Below, in pieces: positions 26,785-27,854 of a DNA stretch of 42,690 nt. The stretch lies in IMG/VR virus record IMGVR_UViG_2718217863_000003; one strand, written 5' to 3'. The notes under the pieces were generated by a model. The model searched no databases and was not told where the DNA came from. It saw only the letters and a program-made list of their open reading frames with translations. The stretch comes from a virus. Its lineage: Duplodnaviria > Heunggongvirae > Uroviricota > Caudoviricetes. The position numbers and the translations under genes are program-made. Position 1 is the stretch's first letter. The number at the start of each line of letters is the position of its first letter.

Positions 26785-27854
26785 GCTGAATTTACAATCC
26801 AAGTGCAACAAAAAAAGAAGTACTCATCAACTAGAATATAATTTTGTTTCCACACAAAAACCATTTCCAAATGATGAGTACTTCCTACCGACATCTTACA
26901 ATAAACGAGCGAGAAAAGATAATGATTTTACTCGCACAGGGCAAAAAACAAGCAGAAATTGCCAAAGCACTGGGACGTAGCTCCAGCACCATTTCTCGCG
27001 AGCTGAAACGACACGCTCTAGAAAGCTACAGTGCAACGAACGCACAAAACAGCTATTTGAAGCATCGTCAAAATAGCAAAGCACAGCGCAAATTAGAGCA
27101 GCCTGAATATTTCAATTTGGTGCAAGAAAAGTTTCTGACAGAAAACTGGTCGCCCGAACAAATCAGCGCACGATTAAAATTGGAAAAATCTGAATTATCC
27201 ATTAGTTATTCAACCATTTATCGTGGTATTTATTCAGGGTTGTTTGATATAGGCGAACGCAAAGCCAGTCGCAAACTGCGCCACAAAGGCAAAACACGGC
27301 ATACAAAAAATCATCATGAAAAACGTGGCAAAATTCAGATATCCAACCATTTGAACGACCGTCCCATTTCGGCGCAAAATCGCAGTCGCTTTGGACATTG
27401 GGAAGCCGATACCGTACTGGGTAAAGCGGGTGGAGCTTGTTTGCTGACGCTGACGGAACGCAAAAGTCGTTTTGAGTTGGTGAAGAAAATTCCTGCCAAA
27501 AAAGCCGAAGCAGTCCAAAAAGCCATGATTGAATTGCTGGATTCACATATATTGCGGTCAATTACGCCAGACCGTGGTAAAGAATTTGCCCAACATCGTT
27601 TGGTAACAGAAGCACTGGGTGTAGAATTTTACTTCCCCGAGCCGCATCAACCGTGGACACGGGGAACGAATGAAAATACAAATGGGTTACTTCGTGAATA
27701 CTTTCCGAAGCACCAAGACATCAATCAGTGGAGCGAAGTTGATATTCAACAGGTGATCAATAAACTGAATTTACGACCACGTAAATGTTTAGGTTGGAAA
27801 ACACCTTATGAAGTTTACTTCAAAAAATCGTTGCACTTGGTTTGACAATTCAAG
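26785..27854 (+). mobile_element. IS30-family insertion sequence, ~1,070 bp, ISApl1-like, with putative 2-bp AT target duplication
   Basis: ~23-bp imperfect terminal inverted repeats around CCAAGTGCAAC / GTTGCACTTGG; transposase stop inside right IR; AT on both flanks; low GC. Confidence 0.75.
26871..27845 (+). CDS. IS30-family DDE transposase (alternative start at 26922 gives 307 aa)
   Basis: HTH ...[42 protein letters not shown] region ...GHWEADTV... Confidence 0.85.

Follow-up and report, generated by a model that had tools for sequence, protein, structure and literature searches.

We find that the window, by which we mean the whole 42,690-nucleotide stretch of DNA analysed here, carries a complete and probably transposition-competent copy of ISApl1, which entered codon 75 of iraL at an AT dinucleotide, in a prophage between potB and potC; its most likely source is the ISApl1-mcr-1 IncI2 plasmid of the strain or a further copy within the cell. 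We rate this account as a whole as very probable (about 0.95). The window is the reverse complement of positions 1237312-1280001 of NZ_CP018109.1, the chromosome of E. coli ST-617 strain MRSN346595, with every one of the 36,506 compared bases identical, and the identical filled site is found in MRSN346355, MRSN346638 and MRSN352231. Snesrud et al. (2017, AAC 61:e00056-17; PMC5404521) described these four strains as serial isolates of ST-617, and their Table 3 lists the insertion at 1.252 Mb, with a target-site duplication of AT, in all four isolates and as an 'interruption of iraM'. The feature is real, well understood and already known, and an earlier note made from the sequence of the window had identified it correctly. 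Because this copy is already in the literature the finding itself adds little; the additions made here are a corrected target gene, the prophage context and a second insertion nearby.

The inserted element is a complete ISApl1

The boundaries and the 1,070-bp length that the earlier note had given for the element proved exact to the base (Table 1), and its GC content is low, as stated there, at 41.6% against 50.4% for the window. The 5′ end reads GCTGAATTTACAATCCAAGTGCAAC and the 3′ end GTTGCACTTGGTTTGACAATTCAAG, with an AT dinucleotide on either side. The terminal inverted repeats (IRs), which were also recovered by an independent repeat search (pair I1), had been described as imperfect and ~23 bp long; they are real and imperfect, but the full repeat is 27 bp with 6 mismatches, and the shorter figure corresponds to its core, TGAATT...GTGCAAC, at element positions 3-25, with 3 mismatches. 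ISApl1 was published with 27-bp imperfect IRs having 6 mismatches (PMC5404521), and both the repeats and the length of the element agree with that definition. An outward-facing TTGACA lies inside the right repeat (IRR) at 27842-27847.

By ISfinder convention, copies above about 95% identity are isoforms of one IS. The name ISApl1 rests here on annotated copies in PLSDB and RefSeq rather than on the ISfinder type entry. A search of PLSDB with the 1,070 bp gave matches in 450 plasmids, with an identity of 99% or more in 444, and the full-length 100.0% matches carry the annotation 'IS30-like element ISApl1 family transposase'. The ISApl1 copy of pHNSHP45 (NZ_KP347127.1), the original mcr-1 plasmid, is 100.0% identical to the element in the window, and that of an Actinobacillus pleuropneumoniae plasmid is 99.9% identical. 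Among complete E. coli genomes ISApl1 is carried by 235 of 5,426, in a maximum of 41 places per genome. A search of a phage collection with ISApl1 gave zero matches, so within that set phages do not usually carry the element.

The single long open reading frame matches the NCBIfam model for IS30 family transposases (NF033563) with 309 bits against a cutoff of 80, over profile positions 1-267 of 267. The protein has an N-terminal Pfam HTH_38 domain (59 bits) and an rve core, and residues D180, D234 and E268, to which catalytic roles are assigned by position only, show DD(33)E spacing. The transposase type and the combination of a helix-turn-helix (HTH) with a DDE triad of 33-residue spacing are those of the IS30 family, and together with the full-length 100.0% plasmid matches they bear out the earlier description of an ISApl1-like element of that family. 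An alternative ATG at 26919 would yield the 927-bp reading frame of the literature; the complete HTH_38 profile begins upstream of this codon, and the longer frame, with the PGAP start, is therefore better supported.

Table 1. Features of the insertion and its surroundings, in window coordinates
Feature	Position	Strand	Basis and remarks
ISApl1, complete, 1,070 bp	26785..27854	+	100.0% full-length identity to >400 annotated ISApl1 copies
IRL, left terminal inverted repeat, 27 bp	26785..26811	+	6 mismatches vs reverse complement of right end
IRR, right terminal inverted repeat, 27 bp	27828..27854	+	repeat search and end comparison
Target-site duplication, left copy (AT, 2 bp)	26783..26784	.	flanks and empty-site comparison
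Target-site duplication, right copy (AT, 2 bp)	27855..27856	.	flanks and empty-site comparison
ISApl1 transposase CDS, 324 aa, WP_012478345.1	26871..27845	+	PGAP start; single long ORF, uninterrupted
Leader hairpin inside ISApl1	26817..26884	+	13-bp perfect outer stem, -23 kcal/mol, z = -7.1 vs shuffles; repeat pair I2
iraL, 5′ part, codons 1-74 plus 2 nt	26561..26784	+	reconstructed ORF
iraL, 3′ remnant, codons 75-111 plus stop	27855..27968	+	PGAP pseudogene fragment; reconstruction
Q late-gene antiterminator	29221..30042	-	Pfam PF03589 Antiterm, 182.8 bits; PGAP; upstream of IS in late direction
Prophage tRNA, anticodon CAT, just downstream of Q	29002..29077	-	ARAGORN, PGAP
Truncated DUF1737 (nanS-p-like) gene, next after IS on late strand	26115..26315	-	Pfam PF08410; PGAP pseudogene
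Class II (P21-type) holin, first lysis-cassette gene	25589..25804	-	Pfam PF04971, 112.5 bits

The element lies in a prophage between potC and potB

The window is occupied by a lambdoid prophage inserted between potC and potB in the potABCD operon, as in CFT073, with its integrase end adjoining potC (window 41572-42690 and the flanking records, L001 from 36673 onward and L006 10308-11171). The late genes, all on the minus strand, follow in the order Q, tRNA, a DUF3927 mini-ORF, the AT-rich island that holds the element, a truncated DUF1737 gene, holin, lysozyme, Rz and the terminase and structural genes. Q and the holin are on the minus strand and the transposase is on the plus strand, and the placement proposed in the earlier note, antisense in the late region and upstream of the holin, thus stands.

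Several other features of this region were observed. The tRNA with anticodon CAT is called tRNA-Met by ARAGORN and in the phage-record annotation, and tRNA-Ile by PGAP; at the same tRNA position CFT073 has two extra tRNA-Arg genes and IS200C. Between the tRNA and DUF3927 on one side and iraL on the other, a stretch of ~467 bp is imperfectly duplicated in direct orientation at positions 28000-28960 (repeat families D2-D4, 83-91% identity), and on the minus strand both copies close with a GC-rich, terminator-like hairpin (AGCCCCTCCGGAGAGGGGCT). Just downstream of the lysis cassette, and on the opposite strand to the late genes, lies an iss/bor serum-survival lipoprotein gene (23854-24147, plus strand), another moron. 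The window starts inside an IS3-family element (1-1214; OrfA/OrfB with a programmed frameshift), a second IS3-family copy lies just outside it (NZ_CP018109.1 1280756-1281969), and fragments of tail-fibre genes are found between and around these copies. The tail-fibre end has thus been rearranged by IS3-family copies, and the phage is probably defective. A truncated cI-like repressor, annotated by PGAP as 112 aa, was considered and rejected, as the 199-aa reading frame is intact and identical to the reference.

Comparison with empty sites establishes the AT duplication

The uninterrupted site was reconstructed by removing the element with one AT and joining 600 bp of each flank. The resulting 1,200 bp have an ungapped, one-piece, 100% match in many E. 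coli chromosomes and are also matched in four prophage records; when the flanks in the window are aligned to one of these (L005), they overlap by exactly 2 bp. These empty-site matches and the 2-bp overlap prove the AT duplication, which had been called putative, and the ends of the element are confirmed by the same comparison with uninterrupted alleles. The target has a GC content of 34% both within +/-25 bp and within +/-100 bp, lower than that of the element itself. A 2-bp duplication in an AT-rich target is what is expected of ISApl1, which has been reported to prefer AT-rich targets (PMC5404521).

The earlier suggestion of a recent event also fits, as the element is 100% identical to plasmid copies and the 1,200 bp of flank show 0 mismatches to the empty alleles. 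The filled site was seen only in the four serial isolates, which come from one patient. One of the four empty-site 'phage' records, ON470612.1, is labelled 'partial genome' and contains the host genes potC, potD and cobB; since it holds host genes, it is a prophage prediction. We therefore rejected these four records as proof of particle production and used them as empty-site references only.

Probable source and route of the insertion

A screen of the remainder of the strain revealed further copies of ISApl1 and the mcr-1 gene itself. On the 64.5-kb IncI2 plasmid pMRSN346595_64.5, an identical ISApl1 immediately precedes mcr-1, and two other plasmids and a further chromosomal site also carry copies. 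The copy in the window most likely came from this ISApl1-mcr-1 IncI2 plasmid or from another copy in the cell, the individual donors being indistinguishable because all copies are identical. Since mcr-1 is moved by ISApl1, a solo copy in a chromosome is the sign of a strain in which the element is active.

The pathway described for IS30 and ISApl1 is copy-out-paste-in by way of a circle, in which the IRs lie 2 bp apart and the junction forms a strong transposase promoter (PMC5821093). Joining IRR to IRL in silico across 2 bp gives TTGACA-17 nt-TACAAT, consistent with that description. In the present case the transposase would have joined both ends of ISApl1 across 2 bp and replication would have released the element as a circle, with the strong promoter TTGACA-17-TACAAT arising where IRR meets IRL; the circle would then have integrated into an AT-rich target with a 2-bp duplication, the landing point here being the AT dinucleotide in codon 75 of iraL. 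The same ISApl1 sequence gave new insertions within one month in the ST-617 isolates (PMC5404521).

The 3′ arm of the leader hairpin covers the AUG of the transposase (26871). We infer that this hairpin damps the translation of transcripts that enter the element from outside, and it resembles the classical read-through block. The interrupted iraL frame continues into the element as far as 26980 and so runs through the hairpin. Because the element is co-directional with iraL, and inside a gene with a log-phase promoter, it might be an unusually active 'master' copy, in which translation of the truncated IraL (IraL′) would open the hairpin and raise transposase synthesis; we think this improbable, but if it were true, such activation might help to explain the burst of ISApl1 insertions in the serial isolates. 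A hybrid outward promoter, reading from the TTGACA of IRR into the 3′ remnant of iraL, was also considered and rejected, as inspection of the flank by eye found no -10-like hexamer at the right spacing.

The interrupted gene is iraL

The earlier note had not recognised an interrupted gene, and the splitting of a gene is the one clear genetic effect of the insertion. On the plus strand, an open reading frame of 111 codons starting at 26561, a 'moron' gene of the AT-rich island that separates Q from the lysis cassette, is divided by ISApl1 inside codon 75, and the disrupted frame, extended to the stop at 26980, forms a 139-aa fusion ORF. Pfam has no family for either IraL or IraM, and the gene was named from direct comparisons with CFT073 and the iraM of the strain. 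The gene iraL was named by Hryckowian et al. [quoted passage not shown] According to that work IraL and IraM are 58.9% identical, whereas true iraL matches share at least 95%; iraL is recognised by 95% or more identity to the CFT073 gene across the whole coding region, the criterion of that study, together with a promoter region conserved at 96% or more and a location on the potB prophage or island.

All of these features were found in the reconstructed gene. Its protein matches that of CFT073 C_RS06710 at 109/111 aa (98%), with 98.8% identity at the nucleotide level, and the 250 nt upstream are 96.0% identical to CFT073. C_RS06710 occupies the same slot in the potB prophage of CFT073, within the shared order Q-tRNA-DUF3927-[gene]-DUF1737-holin. 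From the 109/111 identity and the shared potB slot we conclude that the interrupted gene is iraL, by its sequence a prophage-borne, log-phase RssB anti-adaptor. The insertion truncates the protein at residue 74 of 111, from which we infer that it inactivates IraL and leaves IraM, the anti-adaptor of magnesium starvation, untouched; a partly active IraL′-fusion protein of 139 aa may nevertheless be made.

Alternative readings of the target, the late genes and the element

According to the published reading, iraM is the gene lost, and with it the stabilisation of RpoS under magnesium starvation. This interpretation was stated by Snesrud et al. (PMC5404521), and PGAP labels both split fragments 'anti-adapter protein IraM'. 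Against it, the reconstructed protein shares only 63% identity with IraM of the same strain, as compared with 98% with IraL of CFT073, and the gene sits in the potB prophage, as iraL does. The interrupted gene has neither the high identity nor the location (ycgX/bluR, at the e14/icd end) of a canonical K-12-type iraM, and an intact iraM of 107 aa (WP_001295666.1) is present in the same genome at NZ_CP018109.1 1336092-1336415 (L007 14093-14416), in its usual ymgK-ymgL-ycgX-bluR neighbourhood. A loss of iraM is accordingly very unlikely. As an intact iraM exists elsewhere, the phenotype inferred in the paper was probably attributed to the wrong gene, and the use of one PGAP product name for iraM and for the prophage iraL was probably the cause of the 2017 mislabel. 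Just upstream of the canonical iraM we observed a second, unrelated prophage at the icd (e14) site, at about 1296182-1335989 of NZ_CP018109.1 (L006 from 23183 onward; L007 1-13990), which ends with a umuDC-like pair and a duplicated icd 3′ fragment. If iraL is the gene lost and iraM is kept, any stress-response phenotype is to be sought in growing cells and not under Mg2+ starvation. The earlier note had raised another consequence, namely that the element may be polar on the expression of lysis and structural genes. In its full form this reading makes the element chiefly a polar block to Q-dependent late transcription, which would reduce the expression of holin, lysis and structural genes and so cripple the prophage. 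Its position between Q and the holin, antisense to both, speaks for such an effect, as do the 1.07 kb of untranslated RNA and the convergent transcription from iraL and the transposase that it adds. However, a crude consensus scan for a hairpin followed by a T-run found no terminator-like site on the minus strand of 26785-27854, whereas the empty allele already has four such minus-strand sites upstream of the element (29140, 28486, 28273 and 28024) and a fifth at 25871, immediately ahead of the holin. In the empty allele, moreover, about 2.7 kb between the tRNA and DUF1737 have almost no minus-strand ORFs, and with its IS3-family copies in the tail-fibre region the prophage looks defective anyway. 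Lambda-type Q-modified RNA polymerase reads through terminators. Given the existing terminator-like sites and the ORF-poor 2.7 kb, late transcription must already be of the terminator-resistant kind made by Q. General knowledge of Q and the terminator scan together suggest that polarity on Q-dependent late transcription is probably slight or absent, and a mainly polar block is unlikely.

Two further readings concern the element itself. The strain does carry ISApl1-mcr-1 on a plasmid, and the element does not differ from the ISApl1 copies flanking mcr-1; it might on these grounds be part or a remnant of Tn6330 (ISApl1-mcr-1-pap2-ISApl1) or a single-ended mcr-1 unit. Yet Tn6330 has two ISApl1 copies around mcr-1 and pap2, and neither a second full or partial copy of ISApl1 nor any similarity to mcr-1 was found anywhere in the window, as the earlier note had said in reporting a single copy and no mcr-1 ORF. 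The 2-bp duplication directly borders a single 1,070-bp unit, and removal of that unit restores the empty allele exactly, which makes such an origin hardly credible. Equally remote is the idea that the element is some other member of the IS30 family with a likeness to ISApl1, or a copy that has degenerated and lost its activity: it shows 100% full-length identity to hundreds of annotated ISApl1 copies and 99.9% to the A. pleuropneumoniae plasmid copy, its 324-aa reading frame is uninterrupted with HTH and DDE triad intact, and the same sequence is the one that moved within a month in these isolates.

A second insertion nearby in strain EC-129

A 99.9% identical prophage that carries an identical ISApl1 is present in E. 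coli EC-129 (Tokyo, NZ_CP038453.1). There the element is at L004 20146-21215, equivalent to 26328/26329 of the window and 455 bp from the MRSN site, and lies in the opposite orientation with a target-site duplication of TC. The EC-129 copy is intergenic, between the DUF1737 pseudogene and an intact iraL, 232 bp upstream of the latter. EC-129 also carries ISApl1 on a 212-kb plasmid (NZ_CP038454.1).

Comparison with known systems

The gene interrupted in MRSN346595 and iraL of CFT073 share the same prophage and gene neighbourhood in addition to their 98% amino acid and 98.8% nucleotide identity. They differ in that the MRSN346595 gene is split at codon 75 and that iraM is present in this strain, whereas CFT073 was reported to be without iraM. 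With the insertion published by Snesrud et al. (2017), the strain, the position and the duplication are all as found here; that report calls the target iraM and makes no mention of phage or prophage, whereas we place the insertion in iraL, in the Q-holin gap of the potB prophage.

ISApl1 originates from Pasteurellaceae. The copy in the window has its sequence, its 27-bp IRs, its 2-bp duplication and its preference for AT-rich targets in common with the ISApl1 of pHNSHP45 and Tn6330, but differs from these in being solo and chromosomal, in a prophage gene and without mcr-1 as cargo. To IS30 of E. coli it is alike in the N-terminal HTH, the DDE triad with 33-residue D-E spacing, the 2-bp duplication and, as predicted from its joined ends, a promoter-forming circle or dimer junction; IS30 is a different element from the 1,070-bp ISApl1, and the likeness is one of features. 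In EC-129, an unrelated clinical strain, ISApl1 entered the same AT-rich island between Q and holin in an independent event. Two independent insertions 455 bp apart fit the AT-rich preference of the element and suggest that AT-rich prophage islands of this kind are favoured landing sites for ISApl1.
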